From Kondoa subrosea (taxonomy: Eukaryota), in assembly GCA_039545335.1 (NCBI GenBank), contig BCIN01000003.1, forward strand, positions 1,949,615 through 1,986,064: a stretch of DNA of 36,450 nt. The letters run 5' to 3'. The notes beneath the pieces are model-generated. The model did no database searches. It had not been told where the DNA came from and worked only from the letters and a program-made list of their open reading frames with translations. Shown here in pieces: positions 3,135 to 28,676 of the stretch. The first letter of the stretch is position 1. Every line of letters begins with the position of its first letter. Made by a program: the position numbers and the translations under genes.

Positions 3135-5141
3135 CTAATGAGACAATCGCAACGCATGTGCTCGTTGCTGCTCCCATTCGGCATGGAAGCTCTTGTAGGC
3201 AGCCTGTCGCGCGATGAAGCCTCGGAGAGTACTTCGAGAACATGCTTAAACTCACCATAATAGCTTGTTCACTCCACTGATTATCCAAGGGTAGCAGCAG
3301 CCTGCTCAATTCGTGCAGTTCATCTGCGCTCAGGCGTCCTGAGTCGTCCAGCTGTTCCAGATAGCTTTATTAATGTACATCACAAGAAAGCGCTAAAAGA
3401 TCGTACGTGTTTATGGAAGATGTCTTTCACTTCTTGCGTCAAAAACTGCGCGTCAGTTTGGCTCAGCTTCTAGCAGGTCAGTTAGAACCAGGTTGTAACC
3501 TACTGGGTGAGTTATTTGGCCGGTCCCTGGGCTCGATGATACAGAATATACAGAAGTAGACGCGGGTGCCTTGCCTTTGCCGACATATGCAGAGCTTGAA
3601 GGGGCAGCAGAAGACGAAGGTGCGCCTCGTAGCGGAGGAGCTGAATAGGGTGCGATTCGAGAGACACCAGCATTGTGGACTGGTTTTCTAGCGGCAGGCC
3701 CAGCCATATGCAAAGTATGCTGCTGTGGAGTGATGGTCGGGTGGACAGATGCAAGGGTATTATGTTGGAACATCAATTGCTGCATCTGGAGAGCGCCTTG
3801 AGCAGGCAACATATTGGGAATATATGATTGCGGATGAGTTGGTAACATATTGGGAACAAATGATTGCGGCTCTCGCGTTGTTGGTCTAGGAGTATAAGAA
3901 TTGGGAGTAACAGGAGTATGAGGAGCATATGTCTGTTGTGTGGCATACGTTTGATAGTTTTGCGTTGGATTTGCCGTCTGATAGTAATGCATTGGATCTG
4001 CCGTTTGGTAATACTGGAGTGTATTTGCGGTCTGCTGGGACACTTGAGATATATGAGGCATTTGAGGCTGGAACTGGTTCACAGAAGGTGATAGCCAAGA
4101 CTGTGTTGGACCTGGATGAGCATTCGTATTTATGCCTGGCGATGCCGAATTCCCTAGCGAGCTTTGCGCAGGTGCGCGCTGAGCTAGAGGATGAGCCAGT
4201 ATATCAAAACTTTGGGCTGGTGCATCAGCCTTTGGGTAAACTCCCTGCCACAGGGCTTTTCTAGAAGTCCAAACAGAACGATGGTAACGGCCTTCATCTG
4301 CCTAGACTGGGAATAAGCCAGTCAATCCACCGCAGGGCATGATTTTACCTGGAAAGCATCGACATTTGAGTACAGAATGAGACGTGATCCCGTTATGCCT
4401 GCGAGCATTCCATTGGCTGCGTCCATGAGGGCAATCCATTGCTCAGATGCCAACAAGCTCTTTCGGAAGCTAGACAAATTCTGACGTTGAGACTGCAATG
4501 GTTCTCAATTAGCTATCCTATACAAACTGAAGAAACTTGCAATTTGGGCAAAAATATGTTCACAGCGCAGCTGTATCCAATGTATTTAGCAGACGAGATC
4601 AGAGAACATCAAAGATAGGTACGCACTATCCGCGGAGTTATATCTCTGGGCTGAGGCAGAGCAGGACGACGATGAGCCGCTAGTAGCTAGCCTTTGGACG
4701 AAAGCATACCACATCATTGCGATCCTTGTAGCGCTGAGCCAATCTGGCCTGGTGTTGTGAATGATGAGCAATTTCGCGAGCCTGGCCGTTGCCCAGCTTA
4801 CATATGCTTCCGATTCCGTGATGTACTTGAAGTCCAGCTTGTTCTTGACTTTCTCGATCTCACTCATGTCGAGAATGCCTAAGAAGAAAAGATGTCCGAT
4901 CTGTTCATTCAGATGATTTGATTTAGCAATGGTACCATATTTAGCTTGAGAGTCGTTGATCTACAATTCGAGTTGACCAATTTGAGCATTTCAAACCGAA
5001 AATTAGAGCGGACTTACAAATTCATTGAGGTTATTCGCAAACACCTCCGGCTGTGTTACGAATGTCTAAGCATAGACGAATTAGCTCGATGTGCTCCAGC
5101 GCATGACCAGAACTCACTTTCTGCGGTGGTTGAGTAGCCAT
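3135..5141 (-). CDS. Uncharacterised ~497-aa protein (orphan family member A): unrecognised N-terminal domain, Q/P-rich linker, HTH-like C-terminus
   Basis: Exons 5141-5118, 5065-5018, 4960-4802, 4748-4710, 4650-4627, 4570-4541, 4492-4349, 4301-3504, 3469-3407, 3351-3256, 3203-3135 splice into one open frame. The model is corroborated by the paralog at 27279-28676. Confidence 0.8.
3804..4020 (-). repeat. Coding tandem repeats in the Q/P-rich linker of orphan A
   Basis: 36-bp unit x2 (PQSFVPNMLPTH/PQSYIPNMLPAQ) and ~30-bp unit x3 (QYYQTADPM/HYYQTANPT/QNYQT). Confidence 0.7.
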
Positions 5142-5713
5142 TTGTTGTCTCTCGAAATCAGGAGTATCAGAAAGGTCTGACAAAGAGATAGATATAGCGA
5201 TTGGAATAATCAATGTCGAAGATGAGAGAGCAAGATCAAGAGAGAAACCAAGCATTTTGATAGCTCTCCGCATCGCCTAAGTTGTCGCAAAACATCAAAA
5301 TAGCAATCAAAGGGAAAGAACGTTTCAGAGTCAAGCTCTTCGATACGAACGATGATCATTCGCAGTACAGCAGCACTGTTGTAAGCCTTTGCGAAGAGGT
5401 CCCCATAGCAGACGATGAAAGAGGATCAAGTATGGCACAGCCTATGCGAGAACATAAGGCAAAGGCTCTAGTAGTCTGCGTAGATGATGATTGTGGACCA
5501 AAGAAGCGCCAGAAGAAACAAAGCATTAAACTTGTGACCTCTAGAACAGCATTTGCGCGTCAACGCCCTTTATCCCACTGATGTTCCTTTGGCTTTGAAA
5601 AGATTACGTTGCAAGCAGAATGAGAGCTGATACCCTGCTGCTGAGGCTCTGACCAAAAGACTCATTACTTGGTCGGTCGCTGCTCTCCAAGCTAGTCTTT
5701 TCCAAAGTCAACG

Positions 5714-6054
5714 ATGTTCCTCCGACCTCTACTTCGTTCGGTGCCTACTCTAGCAAGATCAACACCTTCTCTACTTCCAGCACCATTACTGCAATCAAAT
5801 GTCTTGTTGGCTGGTCCAGCAATCCGGACAATGAAAGTTCGAGCAAGCGTTAAGTTGTTATGCAGCGGTTGCAAAGTTACTAGAAGGAAAGGGAGGATTT
5901 ATATCTATTGTTCCAAGGTTCCTTGCTTTTGCTCAGCTAATTGGATAAGATCAGCGCTGATTGCAAACGAACAGGATGCGAAACATAAGCAGGTCAGCCT
6001 ACAAGGACGGAGAAAGTGTATGATCTGACCTCGAATATACAGCGACAAGGTTGA
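5714..6054 (+). CDS. RTC6: Mitochondrial ribosomal protein bL36m precursor
   Basis: Arg/Ser/Leu-rich presequence, then MKVRASVKLLCSGCKVTRRKGRIYIYCSK|DAKHKQ|RQG*. Introns 5918-5974 and 5993-6042. Confidence 0.92.
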
Positions 6055-6349
6055 GAGATGAAGAAGGAGCTAGATTGACTACTCGACAAGGATTAGGGTT
6101 GCTAGAGACTTGCATTGACAACCGGTCGGTACATTCTCTGTTCGGGCTACATGGGCGGCTGCCTGAATTGTGCGCAGCTATCTGTCGAGGAAGATGCATA
6201 GAAGAAGATCATAATTGTACAGCTTTAATTGTAAAAATGTAATATACAAGGCAACTCATCGAATACTTCATACATGTCCTCATTCCACTCTTGCTTATTG
6301 AGCCCTCTCCCTGACATGAAGCCCTTCCATTCTGACACTTCTCGGCTGA

Positions 6350-7316
6350 TCACCAAGAAGCATCGTGCAATCTTTGCCTAAACACGACCAGATCAGCGAA
6401 TTGTTCTGCAACGCGGTGAAGACACGCACATCATATCGGTATTCAATTCCCACTGCTCCAACTCTTCCTCATTCTGTAATCTTGATTCATCATGCATGAC
6501 TTCAATCGCATCCCTCAATTCTGAGAAACTCATAGCAGCTTTCTTCTTCTTTTTAATTCTTTCTTGAAAATAATCTTCTCTTTCCTTCATCATTTTAGCA
6601 GAAGGAGGTAATTCACCAGATGAATCCATACTTGGTGATAAAGGATTAGAAAGTAAAGGTGGTGAAAAAGGTGTAGTAACTGAAGAATCTTCCATTGCGT
6701 CACCCACTGGAAAATCAGCAGCAGAAGCAAAAGTCAAAGAATGGGAAAGTTGATCATGATATGCATCTTCCAATTCGTCCAATTCATCTAAATCGTTTGA
6801 AGAGTTTGATAATGGGTAATGTAAGGAAGGGATCAGATCTGGTTCTTGTTCAGAGAAAGAGGAGTGTCTTTGTAGTGCTGTAGGTGAAGTTGATCTTTGC
6901 ATAGGTGGATTGAAGGAAGGCATTCGTTCCCGAGAAGGTTTCCTGGGTCTGCATTGTAGTCAACAGATCCGAGCATTTTTCCTCAGTTGCATGCACTCAC
7001 GGTACTTCATTCAAAGGCAACCAATTACTACTGCTCTGAGCCTTCATCGGTACTCTGAGATTCACATTCAGCATGAAACCTCAATCCCAAAGAGAGTGGT
7101 TACTCACATAGGTTCATTCAAAGGTATCCACAAAGGCGCTTCATCATAGTCTCCTTCTTCTGCAGTATCCTTTCTGCTATTGCCTCGTCCTCTACCACCT
7201 CGGTACACTTGCTTCATATCTTGGTAATCCTGATGACCCAAATGATCCTCTTCAGCGAGCGAAGATGTGAGATCCATCAATGCTGCTGATGGTGGTGGTG
7301 GTAAAGAGTAGCTCAT
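6350..7316 (-). CDS. Uncharacterised ~269-aa acidic, Ser/Pro-rich protein
   Basis: Exons 7316-7108, 7054-7001, 6948-6430, 6377-6350, with three canonical phase-2 introns, join two ORF-track fragments into one frame. Contains a KKKKK basic patch; no domain recognised. Confidence 0.7.
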
Positions 7317-7664
7317 ATTGTGCGAGATGAATGAATATCAGCTCAACACCCCAAAAACAGAATGCCGGAGCGGTTATCTTCTTTTGGGTTGTAGCCCTTT
7401 GTGCGATGTTCTGGCTATGCTCGTCCTGGGTTTAGCGTAATGTTAATGCTGTGTGTGTATATCGAGCACAGCACGTTTCGAGCGCTGGCCGTATTCGACA
7501 AGGGAAACCGCAAAACATCCCACCACCATTGAAAATAGGATAATTCACATGGATCAGCCGAAGTTCGCAAAGAAGCACAGAATAGTATTGCATAGCGGTA
7601 TTTACATGTAAAGAGAGAGAGAGAGGAGACACAGAGAACGTGCATATACTTTTTAATTTCCTTT

Positions 7665-8733
7665 TTATAAACCAGCAGCAAGCAAACGAGCTTCAGCTTG
7701 CATTGCTCTTTCTTTCCATTCATCTCGTTCGTCTTTCAATCTTTGCAACTCTTCTTGCTTCCTCTGTCTAGATCGACGAGCAGCAACCGTGTTCTGGACT
7801 GTAGCACCCCGGAAACTTCGCATCAATAATCATTTGATAAACTGCTCAAGAGGAACTCACGTCGCTTTTGTTTGACGGCATCAACAATTTCTGGATCCAA
7901 TTGACCAGTAACCTCATCTCCACCTTTCTGAATAGCAGCAACATCATCTTTTTTGCCCAACTTGCGTTTCTTGATTTGTCTTTGAATCAAAACAGGTACT
8001 TCTTTTCGACTAGTTGCAGAAGGTAAAACGTAATTTCTGTGAGAAGATTGCACGCGCTCAGCTCGAATCAGCTTGGAGTCGTGTGAAGATGCTCACCTTG
8101 CTGCAATAGGAGCATCAATAGCAACAGGTTGGACTGAAGTGTTTCTGAAACCGGTGAATTTGCCTTCTTTTCTCTTGCGTTTACCGCGACCAGTTTCCTC
8201 CTCTTCTACTTCGTCTACTTGAGGTAAAGAGGTAGGAAGCAAATCGGTAGGAGAAGGGAGCATGCCGAAAGGTGGAGAAGAAGGTGAAGGTAATCCCAAT
8301 TCCTGAGGACTGCAGGTACCCATCATCACATTGTTGTCTTGACCGCCAATGTAAGAAGGGTCGAAAGAAGAAGGGAAAAGGGAAGTGAAATCGGTGCTGA
8401 GGTAAGGTAGAGCGAAACCAACAGAATCAGGAGTTGCTTCATCTGAAGGAGAGGGAACCAGATCATCAAGTACCAGACCAGGAGTGGCTAATTGGTGAAC
8501 GGTTTCATCATTGACCAATTGGGAAAAGTCGAATACTGGACCATCGAAAAGAAGACCATGTTCCGGAATGGCGGCAGAAGGAACAGCGGTGTCCTTGATG
8601 ATTTCAGCATTGAGAAGTTGACCAAAGAGATCAGAGTCAAACTCCGAAGTCATATCTGCACACCGAACGGTCAGCAAAACGGGTAAATCGGTCCGCCGAC
8701 GCGTCAAAACTCACCGAATGACTCGAACTTCAT
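7665..8733 (-). CDS. GCN4: Gcn4/Cpc1 bZIP cross-pathway control transcription factor (~295 aa from the AUG)
   Basis: Exons 8733-8715, 8655-8097, 8036-7861, 7798-7665. Basic region KRLQNTVAARRSRQRK; basidiomycete Cpc1-type motif IDAPIAARNYVLPSATSRKEVP; acidic/Phe-rich N-terminal activation region. Confidence 0.9.
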
Positions 8734-8932
8734 GTTTTTTAATTGAATCTGTTTACGTGAGTCTTGAAGCGAACAGATTTGAGCGGGTGTGAAATGTTGC
8801 TTGAGCAATTGATCGATTTCTTGATCTTCCACTAGAGTAGTATTTGTAACAGAAGGAAACAGAGGTACTGAAGATAAATCACCGAATACAGAAGAATAAG
8901 AACTGATAAGAGGAGATTGAAAAGTAAAGGTG

Positions 8933-9064
8933 TTAGCCGAGAGGGAAGGCTGCTGTTGTATCGAAGGATAGACAACAGCAGGCGGAGTACGTTTGTTGGG
9001 ATTGCTCTGTGCTACTGAATGAGACGAGCTGGGTTGGGCGAGGGGAGGCCATGATGGAAAACAT
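8933..9064 (-). promoter_or_regulatory. uORF2 of GCN4/CPC1 (43 codons)
   Basis: accaaaATG in strong context; MFSIMASPRPTQ...AAFPLG*; out of frame with the main ORF and ending about 200 nt before the main AUG. Confidence 0.8.
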
Positions 9065-9116
9065 TTTGGTGAGTGTTCAAGATTTCCTTGAAGGACGCTG
9101 GGTGCGACTGAAGAAT

Positions 9117-9128
9117 TTAGGCAGACAT
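9117..9128 (-). promoter_or_regulatory. uORF1 of GCN4/CPC1 (ATG TCT GCC TAA; MSA*)
   Basis: First AUG of the leader, 3 sense codons, A at -3. Typical reinitiation-permissive uORF1. Confidence 0.85.
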
Positions 9129-9503
9129 TCTGATTTATACTTGAAGAATGTAAGTTTGGCCCAATGCGAATTGTAGTTGAAAGCTGGGGAAAGGCGCTCG
9201 AGGCGTGTAGTAGGACTTGTTGTAGAGAGTGTTAGCGGAGGTCTTGATAGAAGGAAAGTGTTTGAGAAAGAGAGGGCAGAGACAATTTTCAGAGCACGGA
9301 ACGTTACACCGGTTCAGATCGGCTGTGGAATTCGCGGTTACGAAATAAAGCTATGCTACAATGTGATCCGTGTTTCGTTACGTAGTAGTACAAAAGTATA
9401 AAAGACCGAAAACGAGAATGCGAAATGACGAGAGAAAGGAGAGAAATGTCCGTTCAATTTCGACCGCTTATCCAGCTCTGATGCTAGGCAGTCCTGCGAC
9501 CGC

Positions 9504-11851
9504 CTAAACAGCGCTTGAACCATCGTACCACCAGAAGGAGAGAGCTGAAGCGCGAGAGATTAGTAGTGAGCCAAACCCCAAACAAGGCGTGCGTACCGAT
9601 GATGAGGTAGACAGACATGAGCGTCAATCCTTCCAACCAACTATTACGCGACTGAATGAGCATATGTATTTAGTTGATGGAACATTTAACTTACTTTGTA
9701 CGATCATCTTGGATAGCCCAATTGACGATAACGATCGAGATGAATAGAGTCAAAGTCTCAAAGATGTCGAAGAACATAGACAGAGGTTGCCCGATACTGT
9801 GTGTAAAACGTCAGCAACACCTCCTTCCAGAAATGCCTGCACAAAGACTCACGCCCAACCCAATAAGATGAGAACGGGTAAAACGAATAGCGAAATTTGA
9901 ATAGAAGAGCCAACAGCGATAGCAACTATTATAATCTGTCAGCCAACCATCCTTCTTTGACTATAGCGATGTACAACTCACTTGACAAATCCAATCGACC
10001 TTTAACCGCAACCGTGACAGCAGCAACATGTTCCGCAGCGTTACCAATCAAAGGAAGCAAGATGAAACTGATCCAGATCTTGGAAACACCTCTTGATTCA
10101 GCTAAACCATTGATACTGCTAACGAGCCATTCTGAAGTAACACCAGCAAGAGCAGCTAAGAGAAGAACCCGGTCAGAGACTGTTGCGCTTTGTATAGCAT
10201 GTAGAGCGGTGACGTACTGACTGTGAGAAGCAGAACGAAAGCAGCGCTGACTTTGAGTTTGGGTTGATGAACACCATCGTCGTTCGAAGAAGAAGAGGAA
10301 GTTGAAGAAGCTGATTCATCGGCTTCGCCATCGTCAGAACCACGGGAAGAGGAGCTTCCGTGCCAAGATGGAACACGGAAGACGTTGTCTCGCTGAGGAC
10401 GGTTGATGATGATTTCACCATCTGCAGTCTCTTGCGGTTTGTAGTAGAAGCTGTGAGTGAAGAGTTGGAAGACGAGGTAGCTACATAGACGAGTAAGCAT
10501 AGCATGAATAGTCCAAGGAACAAATCCCTTACGCTACATAGATGAATAGCAAGATGAATGCTACACCTCGGCTGAGCGACAGAATGTTGCGTTGCTATGC
10601 ATCAAGTTAGGTATTGTCTTGGACTGCATTGAAGAATAGCTCACAGTCTCGGCATCTTGGGCCGCATTCTGCTCAGGCGTACCACCATTCTGATCTTGAT
10701 AGAAACCAATAGCGGTGTCTGCAGCCAATTAGTCGGCAAGTATATGGCATCAAGACGAAATGACGTACGGAAAGCAGCAGGAATAACGATCGCATGAACC
10801 GATAGACCAAGCATAGAAATGTTGAGCTGAGTATTGCGGACGGAGTAGGGCTGATCATAGTAGCGAAGACCACCAGCAAAGAAGCTACAAGTAACAGTCG
10901 GTCAAATACATCTAAAAGAGACAGATCTCGCTTACCAGCATCCGAGAACCAGTAAAGAGTTTGAAATGATACTTCCCAGCATAGCAGCTTGCACGATAGC
11001 CAATTCGCCCTTGACGAGCCTGTGATCATCATTAGTATTATTCTAGCTAGAGGTGCGAAATCAGGACTCACGCAAGAATGGCCACAATCAATTCGATTGC
11101 GTTACTGAGTCAATTGTCAGCAAAACCCGAGCAGAGAAGAGCAGTAGCATACCCAAACGTAGCATTGAGAAGACCGCCAGCAGCATCACCAACGCGAACA
11201 GCTAATTCTTCGGTAGCGAAAGACAGTAGAGCAGCGCAAGGAATAATAGCGAGAGCCGAGGTGATGAAAACAGCAGTATCGCCAACCTTTGCGAAGTTCA
11301 GGGCCCAACTAGAAGAATCGTTCTTAGCTAAGACACCTTCCGAGTTGAAATTGATAGATTACCTGATGGGAATGCTAGATTAGGCGATGAGATGAGCCGA
11401 CACGTCAGAAGATGCAACGGTTTAGACTCACAAGACCAGTAAGATGTTGAGAGGACTGTAACGAACAGCATTGAGAAAGCAAGCCTTCCAAGCTGATCAC
11501 GAAGATTAATTTCCACAATGTCACGCGATTAGGAGAGCAAATCTTACTTGGCGGCGGTTTGAGAGCTTTCGCTGGTCCGAAGACAGGTTTCTCGAATAGG
11601 GGAGGTTTGCCAGTAGCGTGAGTAACGAAAGCGGGTCTTGCAGGTAAAGGATCTGTGTTGGATCGTTGCAAGGTAGGTGCACCTTCAGCCTGAGCGAAGT
11701 CGCGCACATTCACAGCGTCTGAGCTGCGAGAAATGCGCTTTTCCAAGAGAATTGGGTCTAGTTTGTCGTTTACATTGCCAGCCTTGTCTGGAGACAGGCC
11801 AGCGCCTGATGTTATTGAAGCATGATTAGAGGTTTGAGAAGAATTTGGCAT
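9504..11851 (-). CDS. Ca2+/H+ antiporter (CAX/Vcx1 family)
   Basis: Multi-exon membrane protein with alpha-1 repeat (GLLNATFG..IVAI..ASMLGS) and alpha-2 repeat (LLPLIGNAAEHVAAVTVAVKG). Also LFQLFTH-like YLVFQLFTH, an acidic loop, and a C-terminus WAIQDDRTNWLEGLTLMSVYLIIALSFWWYDGSSAV*. Start codon less certain. Confidence 0.88.
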
Positions 11852-12628
11852 TCAATGTAGTAGGTTGCTCTGTTGCAGGCACTGTCAGACGTGTGCGCGA
11901 GCAAGGCAGCGAAGGTCGACTCACTTGGAAGCGTGGTGGTCGAGAAAGAGCTGAGTTCGGGAAGCACACTCAGAGTGTGAGATGTGGCAATTGCTTGGCA
12001 GTGCATCATGATGATAACGTGATAACACCTTTAACCGTGGTGCAGTGCAAAGGACTAATGAGTTGTGCGAGCGAAGCTGCGTTCGCAAGCCTCCTATGGC
12101 AAAATCGCAATGTTTGCGCTTCCTTCCAGTTAGAGGCACTTGCTCGTTAGTCGTTCGCCAAACTTCAGGACGCAGCTTTGTAGCATGGCACAGTTACCTT
12201 CGGGGCTTTCTCTTATATCATCTCGCCTTCTTGTCTTCTGGGAGCTGGCTTGCGAATTTCATGCGCTTTTCGCCGCACTGCCATTGTGCCATGAAGGGAC
12301 TTCTTATTCTGTACTGCTGAACAGCGCAGTCACAGCCAGAATAGACCTCACTATATTAAACTCAGCTGTCTGAGGCCTCCTAATTCTTCTCGGGCGATGC
12401 TTAGTTAGTACTGTTTGTCGCGACTGCGATGTCTAATTCGATTCGCAGAAATATATGTACACGCTGCACGTCTTCCTCTGTAGTCTGCGCTATGTTAAAA
12501 ATCTAGCCTAGTGCATCCGGTATGAAAATCTGCGATTGTCATACGAGAAGCTTCTTCTTTTGTAGAAGAATCTCTTCTATATATGAGTGACGCTCGTCTT
12601 CGATTGACGTCGCTCTTCGATTCGCGCC

Positions 12629-12635
12629 TATAAAA
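12629..12635 (+). promoter_or_regulatory. TATA box of the secreted-protein gene
   Basis: TATAAAA followed by a CT-rich tract and an A-rich caaaATG context at 12710. Confidence 0.65.
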
Positions 12636-12709
12636 GCAGTATTTTCATCTTTCTCTCCTTCTCTCTTCACCATACCTTCCCTTACTTCACTCACTACAAC
12701 ATAAACAAA

Positions 12710-13746
12710 ATGAAATTCCTCTCTCTCCTCTCCACTGCAACTCTCTTTGCTGCTTCTCTCTCTTCATGCTCAGCTCTCAGCATCGAAGACCGCTCTCTTG
12801 CAGCTCGCACTACTTCTTCTCAGCAATGCACCCAAATCTCAAGCTTGAAGGCAGATTTGCTCGAGCTCAAAGCTGAGCTTGCTACTCCACTGGCCGCTCT
12901 AGCTGTTGACATCAAGCTCGTGAGTGCTCTCATCTCTTTCTTTTTCTTCTATTTGACTGACAACATTGTTGTGCAGATCAAGGCCGGTAGCCTCACTGTT
13001 CCAGTCAAAGTCACCCTCGATCTTCAGGCCATTATCGCTATCTTGAACAAGCATGTTCTCTCTATCCAAGCTATTGTCAAAGTCAAGATTGCCAAACGTG
13101 AAACCTCTACTTCTACCAAGAAAATCACTTCAACCTCCACTAAGAAGGTCACCTCTACTAGAAAAGTCACCTCGACTCACGCTTCTTCAACTCACAAGTC
13201 TTCCTCCGCTGCCGCTCCTTCGGCAACCAACTGCGCTTCTCCTTCCCTCATCAAAGAAATCGCTGAAATTAGTTAGTCCAATTCCATCCTCATGCACAAG
13301 CATAGCTCATGTTTAACTCCCATTAGTCGCCGAAATCATTGAGGAACTCGTCTCCGTAATCATCCTGCTGTTGGTTGCTTTGAAGAAGTCGTAAGCTCTT
13401 TCTATCCTCTTTCTAGCTGTACACCTGACAGACTTCCCTACCTTCAGACCTCTTCTCAAATCAATCTTGGCTCCTTTGTTGAAGCAAATCGATTCCGCTC
13501 TTGGTATGATCCTCGTCAGCCTTCTTTTCATTACTTTGCAGTATGGAACCAATTCTGAGACATTTGGGGTTAGGCTGGTGTCGCCTTGATCTTGAAGGGT
13601 GTTCTCGTTCTTGTCGGCGATTTCGTTGCTGACTTGGCTTCAACTCTCAAGGTGAGTTCTTTCCCCATCATCTCAATGTTTTACCGATTGGGTTCTTGAT
13701 ATAATAGGGTTTGGGATCTGTCGTCCCAGGTCTCTTGAACTTGTAA
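12710..13746 (+). CDS. Secreted SC15-like amphipathic protein with Ser/Thr-rich linker
   Basis: Signal peptide MKFLSLLSTATLFAASLSSCSA, Leu/Ile/Val-rich helical blocks, TSTSTKK repeats. Spliced C-terminus LAPLLKQIDSALGMIL|AGVALILKGVLVLVGDFVADLASTLK|GLGSVVPGLLNL* resembles the basidiomycete SC15 family. Confidence 0.7.
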
Positions 13747-17748: not shown

Positions 17749-18126
17749 ATGATCATGCTGAACAGACTCGTTCGCCCTAGCTTGCTACAGCACAGCTCCC
17801 TCTTAACAGCAAGACATGCTTCTTCTTCTTCCTCTCGCTCGCCGTTAATGGAGCGACCTGGTCCACCACCTCTACCTAAAGATCAGCAAAAGGAATTTGA
17901 AGCCTTGCTCAAGAAAGTCAACACACCTCTAGCTGCCTCTTCTTCTAGTGAGACGTCAGAATCCAAAGTCGATGGACAGCAAGAGTATCATCCAGATATT
18001 AGACGAGGACCCAAACCTGAGTTTGAAGGAGATCGGAATCCAAAGACGGGCGAAATGGGAGGACCAAAGACTGAACCGGTGAAATGGAACGATTGGTCAT
18101 TCGGTGGTAGAGCTACGGATTTCTAG
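17749..18126 (+). CDS. SDH8: Succinate dehydrogenase assembly factor 4 (DUF1674)
   Basis: Mitochondrial presequence, PGPPPLPKDQQKEFE, and C-terminal EFEGDRNPKTGEMGGPKTEPVKWNDWSFGGRATDF. Intronless. Confidence 0.92.
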   Translation: MIMLNRLVRPSLLQHSSLLTARHASSSSSRSPLMERPGPPPLPKDQQKEFEALLKKVNTPLAASSSSETSESKVDGQQEYHPDIRRGPKPEFEGDRNPKTGEMGGPKTEPVKWNDWSFGGRATDF

Positions 18127-18498
18127 ATCGCTTGGATTTGATTGGACTTCGTCGCTTATTGGGTATGCCGTTCTTTCTTCTATGGCTTAGCTTGCCTGAT
18201 GATTTAGTCAAGACAGGCAGTCGCCTTCACTTAAGAAGACTGCTTCAGAGATGCCAATTCTCGAAACACAAAGCTGGAAGCGCCATCAGCTATTCCCCAA
18301 ACCGAGACTGTTGCTTTCTGGCAATGGCATCAGAAAGCATGTATACACCTTGTACAAGCAGCATTAGCATAGATGAATAATACTGTAATAAACATTGTCT
18401 GTCGCATTCATTGTGCAGAAGATTGACATGCGAAGGCCAGCTCTATATTGCAGCTCTAGATTATAACGATATAATATTATAATACATGCACAACCTCC

Positions 18499-21400
18499 TC
18501 ATCCCGCTTGTCGATCAGAGCCCACTATTCGATTTACATTAACTTAAGCATTTCTTTAAATGAAAGCCAAACTCACAAAGTAATGTAGAATAGAGACCAG
18601 CTGCTGATGCTTCCGTTTTGAGCTACATTACCAATCTTAGCAATGTATTCAAGCTGACGAGGAAAGGGGAAAGCGATCGTACCTGAATCATATAAACGAT
18701 TCCCGTTCTTGATCCAGCATCAGACAATTCAATAGCAATCCCAGTTTTCCCTACTCGTTCCACTCCATCCGTCAGAACGATAGTAGAGATCAGGATCGTT
18801 TTCCCATTCTTGCCAGAATCAACAACCAACTGTTTGGTATTGGTGGGAGTTTGTTTGTACAATTTTAGATTCGCTTGACCTAGAGATTTCCATTGCTGAT
18901 GACTGGTTTGCAAAAAGACTTTGCATTTCTCTTGAGCGATGATTTCACTTCGTACTGGTCCACTAGCTTTGACGGGCGAAGGTGGTGGGCTGTCATCTTC
19001 ACTCTGTCTAGGTTGAGATGAGGAAGCAAGAAGTTGAGTCGAAGGTGCTCGGTAATGCCTATCTCCGTCAGCTGAAGAAGAGCGAGTTGGCATATCGCCA
19101 AACTCATTAGGTGCTTGCAGTGACATGTTTGAACCATTGCTTTTGCCGGGCAAAGGCGGCGCCAAAGCTGCTGCTTGCGAAGCATCTCTTAGAGAGCCAA
19201 GTGATCGGGAAGAGAGATTTTGCCGCATCTGTTGACTTGCTGGCAAAGAATGATGGTGATTTGGCGGTGCGCGATGATGCTGTTGCTGCGAAGGCGAAGA
19301 ACCAAAAGACTGGAAGCTGTGATCAGAGAATGCAGAAGGCGAGACTAGTCCCGGAGACCGCTGGCCAGGTCGGTACGAATTGAAGTCTTGAGGAGCAGCA
19401 ATTGGCATCGAAGCACTGGATTGAGATCGCCACATCGCATCGGGTTGTTGATCTGGTAAAGAAGAGCGATATTGTCTTGCTGGATCTTGACGAGGATCTG
19501 GCCGTGCTAGAGGCTGCTGATACTGATCTGGAGGAAGGTGCGGATTCGAAGACATGGACAAAGCTGATTCCGAGCGAAAAGGTTGCTGAGCATATTGCGC
19601 GGGCACTGGACCAGAGAAAGACCGAGTTTGTTGCTGTTGTTGAGGCGGCCCGTAGCCAGGTTGATGATGTACGGGAGAAAATGACTGCTGTGACGGAGAA
19701 GGAGGAAGAGGAGATCTGGATCTAGGAGGTGCCATTGTCTGATTCTGGTTAGAGTATGAAGGTTGTCCATGTGAAGGAGAGGGCCCTCGAATGCCATGAT
19801 AGGACGCAGCTCCTCCAGGCGAAAGGGGACTAGGCGAAAGAACGCCACTTCGATTATCGCTATCTCGACGATTCTGATCTGTGCGTATACGAGGCAATTC
19901 TACTCAAGCTTGTTAGACCTCGGTCGTTAGACTGAATTATCGACTCACGATTATTACCAAAAGAAATGCAATCCTCGAATGCTGTCATCCACCTATCACG
20001 GTCCTCTCGACTTGGCGCGCGCATCAAGAGAGTTTCCCTCTTCATGATAACAATTTCGAAGTCCGTGCCCTCCGGATCGGACAGATCAGGCGAAACTTTA
20101 AGATGCTTTCCTGCCAAAGGAGGGAAGAGTAACCACATATCAGCACCTTCTTGCCCTTGTTCACCTTCGGCAAAGCGCTCGCAGACCAGGAAAAGATCAG
20201 TGAGAAGAAAGATGTGCGCATCAGCAATGTAGACTTCTTCTGGTGGCCCATTAGGAGAAGGAACAATTGAAGTTGGTCGGAAAGACATGTTGACATCTCC
20301 ATCATATCGAACATGTCGTACGTAGCTCAAGCCAGGTGGGTTCATCTGTAGCCGACATTTCTGCAACGTGAAATTGGCAAGCGTTTAGCTTTTCTGGCAG
20401 TTGCCAGAGAATTGAGCATCCCTCACCTTTGGTTTCATAGTGAATACATCCAAAGTTCTAGCCGTGTCCAGCCGTCTTTCCAGATCGGTGATATCGTAAT
20501 CACCAAATGATTGTTCCTGCTGTTTTGCTTTATTCGATTCGTTCCAGCTTGATGTACGACTATCCGTTCCAGTCGAGTTGGAATTACTCAAACCAGAAGT
20601 AGATCCTCTTGTGCCTTCGCCTGACAACGAAGTTCGAGTAGTGTTGGACTGATCAGTGTACCGTTGACTGCTAGCGGCACTTCCGTTTGTTCGATGTTGC
20701 GGGTTAGCTTGTTCTACAGGTTGACTGTATTGCGATTGCTGCTGCTGCTGCTCTAGGTCTTGCTTGGTTGGAGATCTCGGCGGTGTGGGGAGTGGAGAAT
20801 TTTGCCTTGAAGAGCTCGACTTTCTCGAGCGTAATTCTAAAGGTGCAGTTGGTGGCAATTGAGGCAAAGGGGATTCTGTGGAGCTTTCAGGTAGTTGTGG
20901 TGCTGGTTTTTGCGATGCGGGAGGAATAGCAACACCATCCGATATAAGTACAGATCGATCAAGTACTTCATCGCAAGATGCTATCAAATCATCCAGCTTC
21001 TCATTTGCGCCGACCAGTAGCCTATGATCTGATCGACCTTCCTGAGTCGACTTGAGTAAGCGCGAGTACAGCTTTTTATAATATCGCAAGCGGTTGTAGG
21101 GAAGAAGAAAGAGGGTATCCAAGGTGTTGAGATCTTCTGGTAGACCAGCCAAGATACGTGCTAGATTAGGGTTGCTTTGTACGGGTTGATAATCATCGAA
21201 AGAAGTTTGATAGGCGAGAGAATAGCGTTGATAAGCTGGTTCCAGATCATCGATCTAGCAAATCAAGTCAGCATACATATACGATTCTTCCTCTATCTAT
21301 GTTGTACTGACCCAGCGCATCAGGAGATCTCCTAAAGCTTTCGGCGAAGCTGGGTTTGGTCCTATGTCTTCTAGTTTTCCTAATAAGGTTCTATTGATCC

Positions 21401-21932
21401 TATAGACTGCTTCTATAGCACGAAACATTTGATCTAAGGCCGGCGGTGGGAAATTGCTTCTCGACCAAGCTGCAGCAACTTTTTTGATTACACTTGCTAA
21501 ATCTTCGACATAGATTCGTTCGGTGTCGATGAGATCCGTAAGAGGATTTGCTGGCTTCTTGCTACCTGAGCTCGTGGATGCTATAGGTGAAGACTCATTA
21601 GACTCGTTCTGCTGCTGATGCTGTTGCGACCTTGATGGGATGTTGTTTAAATTCATTTGCGACAAGTTTTCCGGCGGCATTGGCAGAGATTTGGGCTCAT
21701 TCGCTTCTCGGCCAGCTATTTGAGATGAACTCGATGGTACGTAGCCGGCGGAAGCGCTAGGTCCGCGTCCATCATTGGCTTGAGAATATGTTTGATGCGT
21801 TCGAGAACCTGGCCCAAACTGTTGCTGTTGACGAGCATAGCCTGGAGACGTTGGCCCTGGTGAACGAGGACTAGACAGTCCAGGCATGACAAACGTGTCG
21901 GAGCGCGGAATCGACGGCAGACTGAAGTTCAT
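18499..21932 (-). CDS. Rho guanine nucleotide exchange factor (DH-PH) with a C-terminal PH/RanBD-like domain
   Basis: DH start LTDLIDTERIYVEDL and end LFLLPYNRLRYYKKLYSRLLKST; PH motif HIFLLTDLFLVCE..RDRWMTAF; final domain CKVFLQTSHQQWKSLG..YMIQ|LKTEASAAGLYSTLL; last exon stop at 18499. Confidence 0.85.
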
Positions 21933-22428
21933 CTGTCGTATTCGTTAGGAGGGAAGTGTCAAAAGGCTTCCTGTCGCACGATTCGTGTCGTTACTTGCGC
22001 AGACGTTCTGCAAGTGTGGAAGGGTATCAAGAGCTGGGAAATCGATGGCAAGCCCTTCAATGGCGAAAGATGAGAGCAGTCCGAGCTGTCAGCGGAAAGC
22101 GTGGATCTTGGCTGAAGCTCCTCTCAGATCGTGAAGGTATGACTGTCTTGAGGAAGCAGATCACTCATGCAGATAGCATGACTTGAAGTAGCGGTTCGTT
22201 ATTGACCATGGGATGCTGTTTTCTTCCTTCGGGAGCACGGCGCGAAGTCACTCGTGCGGACCCGTGGTCTTCTGCTGTCGCGTCGCAATCACTGCCTTAA
22301 TCAATAACGATGCTAAATATGCCTATTTGATTGCAACATGGCATCTCCATATAACGATGTTTTCACCAAATTAAGTTTCCCAATGCCTGATTGACTTCAT
22401 CCCTCTCTTTCAATCTTCGAGACCCATA

Positions 22429-25400
22429 TCACCGCTGACCACGTAGCTCCATGATTTGTAAACGAGCTTTTTCCAAGTTTTCCGGATTTCCGACCAAAGC
22501 CAAAGTATCAGCATCTTTCCTTCCAAGCACTTCAACCTGCACATCCGTCTCTTCCCTGAGCAAAGTCAAACCGCTACCTCCTCTTCCAACAACTCGAGGC
22601 ATGAACGATCTCGGTACTTGCAAGTAAGCTAAATGAGTCGCTTTCTTCGCATGCTCCAAGCCAGCATTGACCAGTTCTTCAGCTTTTGTTACGCCTGCTT
22701 CGTTTCCTGATATGATCCACGGGATGGTTTCTTCTGATGAGGAAGAGTTTTCATCCATCAAAGGTAAAACTTCCCAAGCGAAATCTTCGCTTGCTTCATC
22801 GTCTTCCTCTTGGTCGATCCGTGCTGAGGAGGCTGAAGGTTTGCCATTGGCGAAAGGCTTAGGCCTTGCTGCGTTTTGAGCCGGAAGTGTAGCATTGCCA
22901 TGATTTATATTGGTGCCTAATAAAGCGTTAGAACTTGCTCTGGTATATTGATGATGAGCTTACCAGGTGGCAATCGACGGAATATCCTTCCTCCGTCTGC
23001 CACAGCGCGATGCAAGCTAGATGGGACTTCTATTGTCCTCGTCACTTTTCCTCCTCCAGATCTTCCTTGACCAGCATTGCGGCCATTTGCATCGATCTTG
23101 CCAGCTGATGCAGCTGTTTGCGACTGCACATGATGATGTAAGTCATGGTCCTCCATTGTATTGAAGAGGCTTACCTTGATCGCATCGGCGGCAGCTTGAC
23201 ATGCTTCTGCAGATCCCACAATACGAATCAGATCTTGCGCTTCCACATCTTTGACTTCTTCAGCATTGATGAATTCAGCCATGGCAGCGGCTTCCTTCCA
23301 GTTGGGGAAAACTATCTTGACATTGTGCTTAGACTGAAGTTCATTAACATTTGATCCACCTCGACCAATAATTGACGCATGAGAAGATTTCGGCACGCCC
23401 AAGGCATAAACAACTCGATCTTGCAATGCAGAGACTTCCTTCTGGATTTCGTCACGGAGCTTTTCGACTATACTTGCTTTGCCTCGGAGCACAATCAGAT
23501 CGGCTTCAGTATCGTTTGGTCTTGGGAAGCGAAGCATGTAGCCTTGCGAGCGAGAGTCAGTCGGACCTCCAACTTTAGCCATAAGATCACGAACTATACA
23601 CCTCAGTCAGCTAGAAAGGCTTTGGTCAGACAGGAAGACGTACTATTCTGACCACCTTTGCCAATAAGGTTCGACTGCAACGCTCTGTCTACGCGTACTT
23701 CAAGAACAGTCTCTTCATCAGTCTCCTTTGCAATGCCAGCAACGAGCTTCTTTGCGGCAGCAATGGCAGTCTTCGTTCCTCGGATAACGATGGTGTTCTT
23801 CTCGTCGTTTCGGTCAAGTTCAATAGTAGCACCGGTCTCGGCAGCAATTTCGTTGACTTGCATTCCTTGCTTGCCTAAGATGCGAGGAATAGCTTTTGAA
23901 GAAACTGCAATTGAAGTAGTATGGTTGTTTTCGCGTTCATATTCGATTAATTCCATGAGCTGCGAATCAATTTCAACACCCATAAGCAAAAAAAGCTTGG
24001 TAGAGATCAAATCCGCTCACCTCTTTCTTTGCAGAATTGACACCCTTGGAAGGTCCACGTATGCTGATCTCGCTCTTTGCATCTTCAGGTCGAGAGAAGT
24101 TGATCTTGACTTCATACTTGCTTTCGAGACGTTGAGCATACGAGCCTTGTTTACCAATCAGCAGACCACGATCGATACCAGCAGGAACCGGAATAGAGAT
24201 AGCAACTTCGTCAGCCTGAATACAGAAGGTGAGCTTCTGCGCCGAAAAGTTATGAGTGAGACATACAACTCGATCGGCTTGAGCCAGAATACGCTTCTTA
24301 GCTTCTTCCACATTGGCTTTACGGCCTTTGATGACGACTTGATTCCGAGGACGGGTAGATGCTTTCTTTTTGCTTGCAGTAGAACTAGTACCGTTCGCCT
24401 GTTCGACGTCAGAGAAATCGATGCGGACACCCAAATCTTCCTTCAATTTGTTGATGCCTGATCCACCTTTACCGACAATCTATTGCAATCAGTCGTAAGT
24501 ATGTGTTATCTGAGAGTAGAAAGTGCTCTCACATGTGCAACAACCCGGTTATCCACTTCGAACTCAATCTCGTAAGAAGCTTCAACACCTTCGATTTCAA
24601 TTTGTTTCACAGTCTCTTCCAGCTCTTTCTGAACTCGTTGCATCTCTGCTTTAGGTCCTCGGATCTGGACTTGTTCACCAGGACCAAATGAAACAGCTAC
24701 ATCCTTTTCATCCCCAATGATGTTGTTAATGGTCGAATTGTTTGGTCCTTGAACAGCTTTAAGGAGTTTGGAGGGAACAGTGATGATCGAAGTTGAGATT
24801 TCGCCTAAATCGCTGACGATCTTGGTCAAAGCGGCTTTGGCATCTGTATTTTGTATTAGCAAAGACCGGATAATGAGGTAGAGAGAACAACTGACCAATG
24901 ATAGCTCCTTTTGAAGCATTTGGCCAGAGAAGGAAGACAGCATCGCTCTCGTTAGTTTGTCCTCCCCAAGCATCTTCAGCCGGAAAAACCAATTCTAAAC
25001 CTTTATGGTTGTCTAACAAAGTCTTGATAGCTTTAGAGTCCTTGTTCGAGAGTTTCTTGTGTAATAGAGGATCAACAGTGGCAGTTTGGAAATATTGAGG
25101 TGTAAGAGGTTTGATGATCTTGGTAGCTGCTTCTTTAGCTTGAGCAATTGCAGCTTCATCTTCTGCAGTGATATCGATCTCCATTTGATGAGTTGCAATT
25201 TGTTGTTCGGTAGGTAGATGTATTTCAGCAGAAGAGGACACGTCGGAGAAGATATTATGAGCAGCAAAGTATCGACATAAATTTGCGACGTGAGCTTCTG
25301 GAGTAGGAGCAGGGTGGATGGATGTAATATCGATAGTGTCGACCTGAGCTGACTCGGCCTTTTCCATGACTAGACCCATCGCAGCTGTACGTGCTTTGTT

Positions 25401-26744
25401 GTCTCCAGTTCCTCTGAGAGTTATGGTTTCGCTAGCCGAAGCTTGAGGAGGTAGCTCAACGGAGAATCCAGTTTCTTGCAAAACAGCTTCAATGTTGTCG
25501 CCGCGAAGGAAACGATGTTGACGCTTTGGTAAGGAGAGATTGACCGTTCGACAGGTCTTTTTCTGTAAAGCTATGTCAGACGGGACTCAAAAGCTATAGC
25601 AGATGAACTTGCGAGCTCTTGATATGCCTGTTTGATTTTGTCAGCCCATTCACCAAGTTTCTCCTTCTCTACACCCTTGAGTGCAACGTTCCCGGAAGTT
25701 TCGTCAAATTGTACATCGACATCATCTTGTTCCCATTGCGAGTCCAAATTCTTGCGAATCAAAGGCCAGTATACAGCTTCGAAATCAGTTGAAGAGATAA
25801 TTTGAGAATGAGTGACTTGAACAGCTCGATCGCCAACAATTTCCTTGATTCGAGCTTTAGCCAAATCACAAGCATCTTGCGAACCTGAAATGGTGATCGT
25901 GATGGGTTGATCTTCCCCTTCTGCTGATAGATCCTCATTCGGGTCTCGAGGAGGAATAGTGATGTTTGCATTTGTCGCCTCTTGGATGGATTTGAGAGTT
26001 CGGCCTGTGAGTAGCATATTAGCAACGTTCCAAGTCTATACAGCGATCGCAAATTACCTTTGCTGCCAATGATATAGGCTCGGGTGGAAGCAGGAATCTG
26101 CATAGTATCGTGGACCTATTAATTCTTCGTCAGAGTCCTGTCACAATATGCAGCATTTGTCACACCTTTCTGACAATCCTTGCAGTCAGTTCTAGCCTCG
26201 CTTTCTGTATCGCATCATCTGTAGGACCACGTAGCAAGAAAGTAGTAGTCGCTTTACTTGTGCTTGCTTGAATCTGGACGGAAGGCACGACACGCTTGAC
26301 TTGACCAATAGCTTCTCCCAAGGTAGTAGGCGGAGGGTCTTCACCTCTTCTCCTTTGAACTTGAGCAGCTTGCTGAGGTGTGACTAACTGAATTGAAGCC
26401 GAGGCCAGGGAAAGAGTGTCAGAGCAGGCCAACTGAGTATTGACAGGTCTAGAGGTTGCTGCATAGCTGACAGCCGAGGCAGGTGTGCTAGCTCGAGACT
26501 GTTCATCATGTTGTGCAGTCAAATGCGAACCGTTCCAGTTGGCGTTGGCTGATTTCTTGCCTTTACCACCTATAGGTCCAGAGGAAGCTCCCAGGGAAGG
26601 GAAAGCAGACTCGGAGTCCAAGTCAACATTATTGCGTGTTGAAGCTCCGTTCACTCGAGCAGACGACGAGCCCTCTGCTGCGTTGGAGCTGCTGCCTGGA
26701 GCCTGATCTGTAGCGTGAAGGGCTTCGAGATAGGCTGCACTCAT
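22429..26744 (-). CDS. SCP160: Vigilin/Scp160 multi-KH-domain RNA-binding protein
   Basis: N-terminal SESAFPSLG motif and many KH GxxG loops (IIGSKG, IVGKGG, LIGKQG, ILGKQG, LIGKGG, IIGRGG, VVGRGG) across about 10 exons. Confidence 0.92.
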
Positions 26745-27278
26745 GACTGTTATCTGGCCTTTCGGTGGTCTCGTGTCAAAAGGATCAATGCTAATTCATC
26801 AAAGGGGTGGTGACAGCGGCTTGTAGCAATGCTTTACCATGCTCTTTTTGCATGCAACTAGCTTACTTAATCCTGCCGCGTCTGCAAAGTTTGCCAAATT
26901 TCGCATAATGATCAATGAGCGTTGGAGCATATACCTCACACTTATTGAGCATTCGAGTAGTCGCTTCTAGTCGAGACTATATGTCCTTACGCTGAGCGAG
27001 AGGTGAAAACGAAAGACAGCGAAAATTGAGCATTGCAAGTCTAAGGAATCCTTTCTACAATTACAGGATGGATGACATGCGAGACGTGCAGAAACCAGAT
27101 CCCGAATGCAAGAAAGAAGAGATAACACAGAGAGAAAAGCCTCAATCGCAGGAATCGGTAGGCAGAAACAGAGACAGTTATGATTTGATTGCCTTGACCG
27201 CAACTTCGGCTGACAAAGAGACGAGAATTTCTTATTGCTCATGACCGACAAGCTGTTTAAATGCTCTGGTTCTAGCCT

Positions 27279-28676
27279 TCATTGATTCGTTGCTCCTTGC
27301 GATTGCCTAAATTTTCGAGCTGCATGCCAAGCTTGCTGTAAGTAATGCTCATCACATTGAATGTTCCGCATATTAGGTATCTTGCCTACATACCATTGCC
27401 GAAGAAGGTGTCCAGTGGGAATCCACACGCTTCAGCTCTCCGAGCATGTCATTCTTCCAGCCAGACTCGTCATTATCTGAATGCCGCAACTAGGCCAAAG
27501 AATGTGCTCGGTGTTTTTGCACCAGGAGCTACTAGCCACTCACATATTTCTCAAAAATTCTGGGAGTCAAGTTCTAGATATGCACAAATTCAGCATCGGC
27601 GATATCGAGTATCGATTGACATACAGGACATGAGCTGGAAGATGCAACATCGGCCATTTGTAGGGGATGAAAGCTTGAGCTCGCGTGTGTCTGCATAGAA
27701 GAGGGATGAGTTACCGCAGCCATTGAAGCGCTGGTAAGAGAATGCTGAGCTGAAGATATCCTCAAATCAGCTAATTGAGTGGACGACTAGGGAGGAACCT
27801 TACGAGCCAAAGGGTGCGGTCTTACTGGGATCTTGGGGTAAAAAAACTCCCACAGATGTTTGCGGCCTGGCCAAAAGTCTTTGGCATAAATGTTGAGATC
27901 CTTCTGAGAGTGGATTTAGGCTTCAACGCTTAACTATATCTGAAAGTCTTACTCTAAAGCCATCGACACCAATATACTTCGGCAATCTACTGCCTGAGGT
28001 TGACGTAACGTCATGAAGCAGGTCATTGGCTGCGTCCTTGAAACGATCGTGGCTGAGGCCCGTATCACAACACTGATCTAGGGATAAGATCAGCTTCGAC
28101 TTGGGCCAGGAAACCACACACATATTGCGCAAAGACATGTTCGCATCGTAACTAATTTCATTAACAGTATACTGCTCGCAAAAGAAAGCACCTCACCATC
28201 CTTGGGGTGATACGCCTAAGCTATATAACATAAAGCTGAGAGAGCAGAAGGGCAACTTATAAGCGGGACTAACATCGACATGAATACCCTTGTGGTAGGT
28301 CACTAATCTCAGCTAACAGGGAGCTGATATAAGGGAGCTGAACAACTCCCGTTCGGAGCTACTTACGAATAAGTCGCTTGTAGTATGCTGACCAGGCCTC
28401 TCAGTGACGATATCCAGCTCTTGTACCATCGCTTGAAGCTGGTGAAGCGTGATGCTTCCCAAGAACAGATCGGCATGATTAACATTGATAGACGCCGCTT
28501 CAGAATGAAATTTGTTATACTGCATCATCGATGAATTGTCAAGCAGAGCGACATTGAAGTTTTGCCTTACATATCTAATAACTATTTGATCTACCATCTG
28601 TTGATGAACTTCAATTGTCTAGACAAAGAATAAACATAACGCAAAACAGATCAAGGCGTTTACGTACGTTTGACAT
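27279..28676 (-). CDS. Uncharacterised ~276-aa protein (orphan family member B), paralog of 3135-5141
   Basis: Exons 28676-28668, 28618-28571, 28519-28367, 28312-28274, 28220-28197, 28151-28122, 28072-27953, 27903-27804, 27749-27625, 27573-27544, 27489-27394, 27335-27279 give one open frame homologous to orphan A. First exon and the acceptor at 28073 are tentative. Confidence 0.78.

Follow-up and report, generated by a model that had tools for sequence, protein, structure and literature searches.

A pair of predicted, old paralogous genes sharing micro-exons in the basidiomycete Kondoa subrosea

Two predicted protein-coding genes, here called A and B, lie 22.1 kb apart on the reverse strand of a stretch of nuclear DNA from the fungus Kondoa subrosea (GenBank assembly GCA_039545335.1, contig BCIN01000003.1, positions 1,949,615 to 1,986,064; 36,450 nucleotides, hereafter the window), and judged from their sequences they are real, old paralogs. 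The two models have in common both their exon structure and a three-part product layout, in which a conserved N-terminal domain (N-domain) is followed by a linker and a C-terminal module. We regard it as probable that, taken as a whole, A and B are best explained as intact old paralogs that descend from an intron-rich ancestor and encode products of this layout. All positions below are those of the window, and the loci are as follows.

3135..5141 (-): gene A, ATG at 5141-5139 and TAG at 3137-3135; 11 exons and 484 amino acids in the refined hand model
27279..28676 (-): gene B, ATG at 28676-28674 and TGA at 27281-27279; 11 exons and 293 amino acids in the refined model

Evidence that A and B are paralogs

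A preliminary description of this DNA, made from the letters alone, had proposed a hidden pair of paralogs about 22 kb apart, and the proposal is supported by alignments made both before and after splicing. When all frames of A, unspliced, were used as the tblastn query against the whole window, three A blocks found their best match outside A in B, with strand and order preserved, namely the LRCEHIFAQ block (expectation value, E, 0.004), the DAAN...VDAFQ block (E 5e-4) and the W..RK.LW...YPK block (E 0.001). Because these three blocks match before splicing, the likeness of A and B is independent of splicing choices. The spliced proteins align in blastp with 82.0 bits (E 7.6e-22, 33% identity over 196 columns), against a mean of 16.6 bits (standard deviation 2.0, maximum 23.5) when B was shuffled 200 times and compared with A. 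Moreover, the C-terminal modules alone, of 67 and 60 amino acids, reach a local score of 45 against 24.0 +/- 4.4 after shuffling, with none of 1000 shuffles reaching 45, and a degenerate DNA pattern of the 14-residue W..RK.LW...YPK motif matches only A and B within the window, while none of 100 shuffles contained two or more matches. The gene ends are those first described, and all six pairs of quoted peptide blocks are present where they had been placed, in stop-to-stop frames of the minus strand.

No similarity is left between the A and B loci at the DNA level, and no duplicated neighbouring gene was found in the window. The only other similarities within the window at E <= 0.01 are among KH repeats in one gene and among IBR repeats in another, the internal similarity of the latter, a RING-IBR gene, being one weak match. 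A hidden Markov model (HMM) of A and B, a check that had been suggested at the outset, detects no third copy in the window. As DNA similarity is lacking and no other neighbours are related in the way that A and B are, the duplication is therefore taken to be old, with the neighbours not carried along. With 33% protein identity and nothing left in the DNA, the earlier wording of an old and diverged pair is apt.

Exon models of the two genes

Both models were rebuilt by hand from canonical splice signals and checked by script, partly under the guidance of the similarity between A and B. The predicted exons of gene A are listed below in the order of transcription, with lengths in nucleotides (nt).

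5118..5141 (-): exon 1, 24 nt, MATQPPQK; starts at the first ATG after a CT-rich tract; GTGAGT donor
5018..5050 (-): exon 2, 33 nt; ACACAG acceptor, GTAAGT donor
4802..4960 (-): exon 3, 159 nt; conserved His and FFLG..LD; GTAAGC donor; aligns with B exon 2
4710..4748 (-): exon 4, newly proposed 39-nt micro-exon, ARLAQRYKDRNDV
4627..4650 (-): exon 5, 24-nt micro-exon, PRDITPRI; CCTCAG acceptor, GTGCGT donor
4541..4570 (-): exon 6, 30-nt micro-exon, LRCEHIFAQI, with the sole Cys of protein A
4349..4492 (-): exon 7, 144 nt; DAAN...GSRL..Y..VD.F block, 46% identity to B in the alignment
3504..4301 (-): exon 8, 798 nt; W..RK.LW...YPK block, followed by the P/S/Q/A/T-rich linker
3407..3445 (-): exon 9, 39 nt, FLTQEVKDIFHKH; aligns with B exon 9, the flanking intron positions being common to both genes
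3256..3351 (-): exon 10, 96 nt; aligns with B exon 10
3135..3203 (-): exon 11, 69 nt including the TAG; CGACAG acceptor

In the A model all junctions leave the frame open, the introns are 47-67 nt long, and the donors are GT with the exception of one GC, with G at position +5 in nine of ten. Codon usage gives a log-odds score of +71.8 in frame and of -133 and -134 out of frame, as computed on the earlier 10-exon model that lacks 4748-4710. Exon 4 is the sole internal open exon that has a donor with G at +5 and leaves flanking introns of 53 and 59 nt, and the junction between exons 5 and 6 has a single open-frame solution. Intron 6 (4493-4540, minus strand) is a 48-nt GC-AG intron, GCAAGT...TTGCAG, while its counterpart in B (28073-28121, minus strand) is a GT-AG intron with a GTGTGT donor; GT-donor alternatives for the A intron would remove the conserved DAAN block. 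The start codon at 5141 is predicted and uncertain, as in-frame ATGs also occur further upstream, and an alternative acceptor of exon 2 at 5066 would add five codons.

Three further observations concern the A locus. The frame of exon 3 stays open for 52 codons beyond the GTAAGC donor, through intron 3, exon 4 (which is read in another frame) and intron 4 (4646-4801, minus strand). This region must be spliced out for the conserved A blocks to be reached, and its open frame could have arisen by chance (roughly 8% for 52 codons) or could reflect an isoform with retained introns that ends at 4586. Both predicted ATGs are immediately preceded by CT-rich tracts, at 5142-5276 (-) in A and 28677-28790 (-) in B; that of A is in frame, and two more ATGs within it would add about 38-44 hydrophobic residues, but the tract is tentatively read as promoter or 5' untranslated region. 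Antisense to A exon 8 there is an open frame of 117 amino acids (3911-4261, plus strand), which is most likely a by-product of biased composition.

The predicted exons of gene B are the following.

28668..28676 (-): exon 1, 9 nt, MSN; ATG after a CT-rich tract; GTACGT donor, then a 49-nt intron with a pyrimidine-rich end
28367..28618 (-): exon 2, 252 nt; conserved His and LFLG..LD
28274..28312 (-): exon 3, newly proposed 39-nt micro-exon, LRLVTYHKGIHVD; flanking introns of 54 and 53 nt; GTTAGT donor
28197..28220 (-): exon 4, 24-nt micro-exon, LRRITPRM; junction to exon 5 with a single open-frame solution
28122..28151 (-): exon 5, 30-nt micro-exon, LRCEHVFAQY
27953..28072 (-): exon 6, 120 nt; DAAN...GSRL block
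27804..27903 (-): exon 7, 100 nt; W..RK.LW...YPK...HPLA; donor at 27803 preferred, 27825 as the alternative
27625..27749 (-): exon 8, 125 nt; short S/A-rich linker
27544..27573 (-): exon 9, 30 nt, NLTPRIFEKY
27394..27489 (-): exon 10, 96 nt
27279..27335 (-): exon 11, 57 nt including the TGA

Here too all junctions leave the frame open; all ten donors are GT with G at +5, and the introns are 45-58 nt long. The codon log-odds score is -0.7 in frame and -50 and -112 in the other frames, again on an earlier 10-exon model, without 28312-28274 and with the older boundary between exons 7 and 8. Exon 1 is uncertain, a Met inside exon 2 being an alternative start. Exon 7 probably runs to 27804 rather than to 27826, with a GTAAGG donor and a 54-nt phase-1 intron; this end is preferred because the similarity of A and B extends through HPLA and because an intron of 39 or 81 nt is avoided. 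With the donor at 27825, the acceptor of exon 8 would be at 27745 or 27787.

Micro-exons and shared intron positions

The first models had 10 exons per gene, and their introns measured 45-67 nt except for one of 151 nt in A and one of 146 nt in B, at a matching position. Each of these long "introns" holds exactly one qualifying open exon, that is, one with normal flanking introns and a donor with G at +5, and in both genes it is 39 nt long. Among 5000 shuffles, a qualifying exon arose in 7.3% for A and 6.3% for B, and both genes had one in 0.5%; the two were equally long in just 5 of the 5000. These figures are to be read with the fact that the criteria were set after looking at the data. On these models, each "intron" of 146-151 nt very probably hides a 39-nt micro-exon. 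Between B exon 3 and A exon 4, 3 of 13 residues are identical. The paired 39-nt exons are the reason for preferring the 11-exon models, in which all introns fall within 45-67 nt. The first reading of the exons thus stands as to micro-exons at matching positions, and it is amended by the likely additional 39-nt exon in each gene and by the likelier end of B exon 7 at 27804.

The pooled splice signals are regular, with GT in 19 of 20 donors and G at +5 in 19 of 20. A branch-site-like CTRAY lies near the 3' end of 6 of the 20 introns, against 12% of random 35-mers, and a relaxed motif does so in 13 of the 20, against 35%. Of the three frames, the one that is read has the highest codon score in A as well as in B (10-exon models). 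On the protein alignment, eight intron positions are common to A and B, or nine if the first introns are counted, and each gene has one private intron. Nearly all exon lengths are multiples of three and 19 of 20 introns are in phase 0, an excess that may come partly from modelling by eye. In the middle of the conserved N-terminal domain, both genes carry a symmetric run of micro-exons of 39, 24 and 30 nt. An exhaustive listing of alternative splice pairs was mostly uninformative, as it allowed deletions of conserved residues, but in A as in B it left one solution for joining the 24-nt micro-exon to the 30-nt one, and it revealed the better donor of B exon 7.

Protein layout and possible function

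The conserved N-terminal domain is about 190 amino acids long in A and B. Its best conserved block is ITPR[IM]-LRCEH[IV]FAQ, and a conserved His (H42 in A, H51 in B) stands in H-x(3,4)-F-L-G, 54 residues (A) and 60 residues (B) upstream of a conserved Cys. The isoelectric points of the two N-domains, 8.6 and 7.8, are not strongly basic. The linker of A comprises about 227 amino acids, rich in P/S/Q/A/T and with Y-Q-T repeats, and that of B about 38, rich in S/A. The layout put forward in the preliminary description, an N-domain, a variable linker and a C-terminal domain, is retained, the C-terminal likeness being significant by shuffling; the N-domain had been put at about 170 amino acids and comes to about 190 with the additional 39-nt exon.

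In the mechanism that we propose, A and B would be two intact coding genes derived from one intron-rich ancestral gene through an old duplication at the DNA level. Their products would consist of a mixed alpha/beta N-domain, a low-complexity and fast-evolving linker and a helical C-terminal module of 60-67 amino acids. The N-domain would be the working part, with a putative binding, catalytic or redox site around His...Arg-Cys-Glu-His; the linker of A would contribute weak, multivalent contacts, and a partner would dock on the C-terminal helices. As neither predicted N-terminus appears hydrophobic by eye, the products are taken to be intracellular. The long linker of A would be a paralog-specific addition because that of B is short, and by analogy its type may resemble that of co-regulators, condensate-forming proteins or adaptor proteins. 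A role as an adaptor or co-regulator is possible and is put forward tentatively, a thiol-dependent enzyme or redox switch seems unlikely, and the chance that the function is something else comes close to even. It would be a long shot that A and B are founders of an undescribed His...Arg-Cys-Glu-His domain family, a new thiol enzyme or redox switch whose 39-24-30 cassette could be skipped in frame, giving isoforms with and without the site.

Searches for a known family

The queries in the searches described here were single exons, of at most 84 amino acids from the conserved domain and of 266 amino acids for the linker exon; the best conserved block is divided between exons of 8 and 10 codons, which are too short to scan alone. 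Fragments of A and B in open reading frames (ORFs) had no Pfam match at E <= 1, and the exons of 84, 53 and 48 amino acids had none even at E <= 10. With exact exons no Pfam E was better than 0.15; two A exons gave matches at chance level, one to EF-hand_5 and the other to Ribosomal_L6e_N. Profile and sequence searches of PDB with A and B exons were blank, and ESM Atlas returned no usable match for two exons. Word-index searches were likewise blank for the ORF of A exon 7 (against longer proteins) and for a profile of B exon 2 and A exon 3. In phmmer, A exon 8 (266 amino acids), the least conserved exon as a query, had 0 matches among 1.84 billion representatives. A metagenome scan with the profile of A exon 7 and B exon 6 produced 80 pattern matches, 0 of which were confirmed, and a scan with the W..RK.LW...YPK DNA pattern produced 16 loci, about the chance expectation, that were alike only at the motif. 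The N-domain had been called unrecognised, and so it remains after the Pfam, PDB, Atlas and large-database searches, which with single exons as queries are a weak test. Proteins that no search can name are frequent in sparsely sampled fungi.

The reach of the protein database was gauged with a neighbouring NEK/NimA-like kinase ORF (34937-36223, plus strand), which had 3876 matches. Its best fungal matches belong to Puccinia, Cronartium, Melampsora and Phakopsora and to a microbotryomycete, at 61-63% identity in the kinase domain, while Agaricomycetes reach 51% or less. The match list is headed by one fish-labelled entry of 41% identity. The database contains fungi but no close relative of the host, which on these sequence matches is placed as a basidiomycete whose nearest relatives in the database are rust fungi and the microbotryomycete. 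Because such a relative is lacking and the queries were short, the blank searches argue only weakly for a family that is new or restricted to a lineage. A and B are possibly an uncharacterised, perhaps taxon-restricted fungal gene family, and the earlier term "lineage-specific" is not borne out, given what the kinase control says of the database.

Comparison with known systems

The LRAT/HRASLS thiol acyltransferases have a His...NCEHFV motif with a nucleophilic Cys and a triad of Cys113, His23 and His35, according to the part of PMC4624172 consulted. Like these proteins (PLAAT; NlpC/P60, PF04970), as they appear in that part of the source (PMC4624172), A and B have an N-terminal conserved His and a downstream Cys-Glu-His with hydrophobic residues, and their domain is similar in size. 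Compared with the NCEHFV given there for LRAT, A has LRCEHIFAQ and B LRCEHVFAQ, so that Arg replaces Asn and the order of the later hydrophobic residues differs. A second conserved His/Asn 11-12 residues after the first His is not evident, as B has a His at +11 and A does not. Crude propensities predict a helix after the His of A and B, unlike the beta-hairpin of LRAT, and about 80 more conserved residues follow their Cys in place of a membrane anchor.

An LRAT HMM was built from 76 aligned bacterial ORFs with the motif, 73 of which match PF04970 (best E 8e-31). Against the full spliced proteins this HMM, which is bacterial only, scored -0.7 bits for B, with only CEH.FA..C aligned, and A was not reported; the profile of A and B, which consists of two sequences, reached a probability of 0.06% against the LRAT profile in hhalign. 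Pfam hmmscan of the exon translations gave no LRAT match at E <= 10. Membership of A and B in LRAT/NlpC-P60 is thus not supported at the profile level (HMM -0.7 bits, hhalign 0.06%), and the likeness comes down to three or four residues. LRAT-domain genes with the exact NCEHF...YG motif are themselves frequent in Cupriavidus, Paraburkholderia, Pseudomonas, Treponema and cyanobacteria, with at least 119 loci. An EF-hand was also considered and rejected: EF-hand_5 reaches 12 bits where the cut-off is 25.9 (E 0.15), in A exon 10 only and not in B, and in neither protein do the loop positions look canonical by eye.

As for gene structure, the consulted part of PMC3990503 gives 5.7 introns per gene and a median exon of 194 nt for Cryptococcus neoformans, with exons down to 1 base pair (bp) that were missed by automatic annotation. 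Like the genes described there (PMC3990503), A and B have many introns of about 50-60 nt, tiny exons and GT-AG signals with a strong +5 G. Unlike ordinary intron-dense basidiomycete genes, they hold six introns (A) and five (B) within the roughly 190 codons of the N-domain, and 19 of 20 introns are in phase 0. Their division into exons, though extreme, can still be recognised as the intron-rich basidiomycete norm. The label of a "micro-exon gene family" as a special class is therefore not kept, since short exons are ordinary in intron-rich basidiomycetes, as far as the portion of PMC3990503 consulted describes them.

The micro-exon genes (MEGs) of Schistosoma consist almost wholly of symmetric exons of 3-81 bp, with introns of up to 5 kb, and encode secreted proteins, according to the part of the preprint consulted (bioRxiv 10.1101/2023.06.21.545858). 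A and B are like the MEGs, as portrayed there, in their runs of symmetric micro-exons with lengths in multiples of three, the skipping of which would preserve the frame. Unlike in MEGs, exons of at most 39 nt make up six of 11 (A) and five of 11 (B) and encode just 63 of 484 and 44 of 293 residues. Moreover, set against that description of MEGs, the introns of A and B measure 45-67 nt, one exon has 798 nt, and by eye neither N-terminus resembles a signal peptide. Kinship with the Schistosoma MEGs was rejected; the name is shared but there is no relation. In Xlr2, a regulator of the fungus Trichoderma virens, inclusion or skipping of a micro-exon alters the protein, as reported in the part of PMC11121469 consulted; set beside this case, alternative use of micro-exons in A and B would be pure speculation.

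Alternative explanations

Several points weigh against the reading of A and B as intact old paralogs with the products proposed above. Every junction of the two genes is a prediction, and in these models the first exons, the boundary of B exons 7 and 8 and the 39-nt exons all have alternatives and are uncertain, while the in-frame codon score of B is about zero (-0.7). No homolog outside the window was found in the single-exon searches. The functional part would be drawn only from the composition of the proteins and a handful of conserved residues; neither A nor B showed a DNA-binding domain or a nuclear signal, and LRAT-like, the sole concrete enzyme lead, failed its tests.

It is doubtful, but a view to be taken seriously, that the paralogs are real and their N-domain belongs to a described family that is invisible exon by exon, such as a divergent permuted papain-like domain of the LRAT/NlpC-P60/PPPDE type or another known fold; A and B would then not represent a new family. 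The conserved domain was queried in pieces of at most 84 amino acids with the key block on exons of 8 and 10 codons, and at 61-63% for the NEK kinase no close relative of the host is in the database, both of which would let a known family pass unseen; in addition, H-x(3,4)-F-L-G with R-C-E-H-[IV]-F 54-60 residues on recalls the HRASLS/LRAT His...NCEHFV as given in the consulted part of PMC4624172. Pfam is nevertheless blank at E <= 10 for the 84-, 53- and 48-residue exons, PDB profile and sequence searches are blank, and the LRAT HMM (-0.7 bits for B, A not reported) and hhalign (0.06%) speak against that family. The preliminary description had seen in the layout one typical of transcription regulators; on this view the disordered linker, between the conserved domain and the helical one, would be of the activation type. 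The 227-residue P/S/Q/A/T-rich linker of A with its Y-Q-T repeats has a composition common in co-activators, and neither predicted N-terminus is hydrophobic by eye, but no exon contains a DNA-binding or transcription-related Pfam domain or any other named one, the N-domains (isoelectric points 8.6 and 7.8) are not strongly basic, and the layout also fits many adaptor, RNA-granule and endocytic proteins. Since the linker of B is 38 residues long and S/A-rich, a long Q/P-rich tract is not a family feature, and the typical-regulator claim is not borne out; that A and B are transcription regulators is unlikely.

Decay of one copy, most likely B, or its lack of expression is improbable. The codon-usage score of about 0 in B against +71.8 in A would fit such a history, but at 33% protein identity, and with the DNA similarity gone, a copy free of selection should show stops, frameshifts or lost splice sites, and B has an open frame over 11 exons, ten of ten GT donors with G at +5, and the conserved blocks of A in order. 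Least credible is a resemblance due to chance, low complexity or similarity-driven choice of splice sites, to which we give almost no weight: the splice models were made by eye and partly guided by similarity, and the linkers are of low complexity, but the three key blocks, which are not of low complexity, match before splicing as the best matches outside A in the window, 82 bits stand against a shuffle maximum of 23.5, and the 14-residue motif pattern occurs in A and B only, with two matches in 0 of 100 shuffles.

Genomic setting

The window is gene-dense fungal nuclear DNA with a G+C content of 42-51%, and the neighbours of A and B are ordinary housekeeping genes, with stop-free stretches of 130-430 amino acids. 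tRNA and Rfam scans of the window found nothing. The neighbouring features are as follows.

1289-2835 (+): RBR-type E3 ubiquitin ligase (ORF pieces with RWD, RING and IBR), convergent with A
22432-26795 (-): long multi-KH vigilin/Scp160-like gene, seven large ORF pieces
34937-36223 (+): NEK/NimA-like kinase
Elsewhere in the window: mitochondrial ribosomal protein L36 and a ZIP transporter
Elsewhere in the window: Pil1-like eisosome protein and a DUF1674 protein
Elsewhere in the window: RhoGEF-PH protein and a CID+RRM protein

About 300 bp separate the end of the RBR-type ligase gene from the 3' end of A.

Implications

The finding has no bearing on any long-standing open question, and its main value is a lesson for annotation, in that two intact genes would be missed or fragmented by ORF-based or automatic calling. 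A and B would easily be missed because the residues conserved best in them lie on exons of 8, 10 and 13 codons. For intron evolution, the pair offers useful small data points, namely a conserved cassette of micro-exons, an excess of phase-0 introns, and a position at which one paralog has a GC-AG intron and the other a GT-AG intron. Should the family turn out to be common across Pucciniomycotina, one more conserved domain of unknown function, with a candidate Cys/His site, would be gained.

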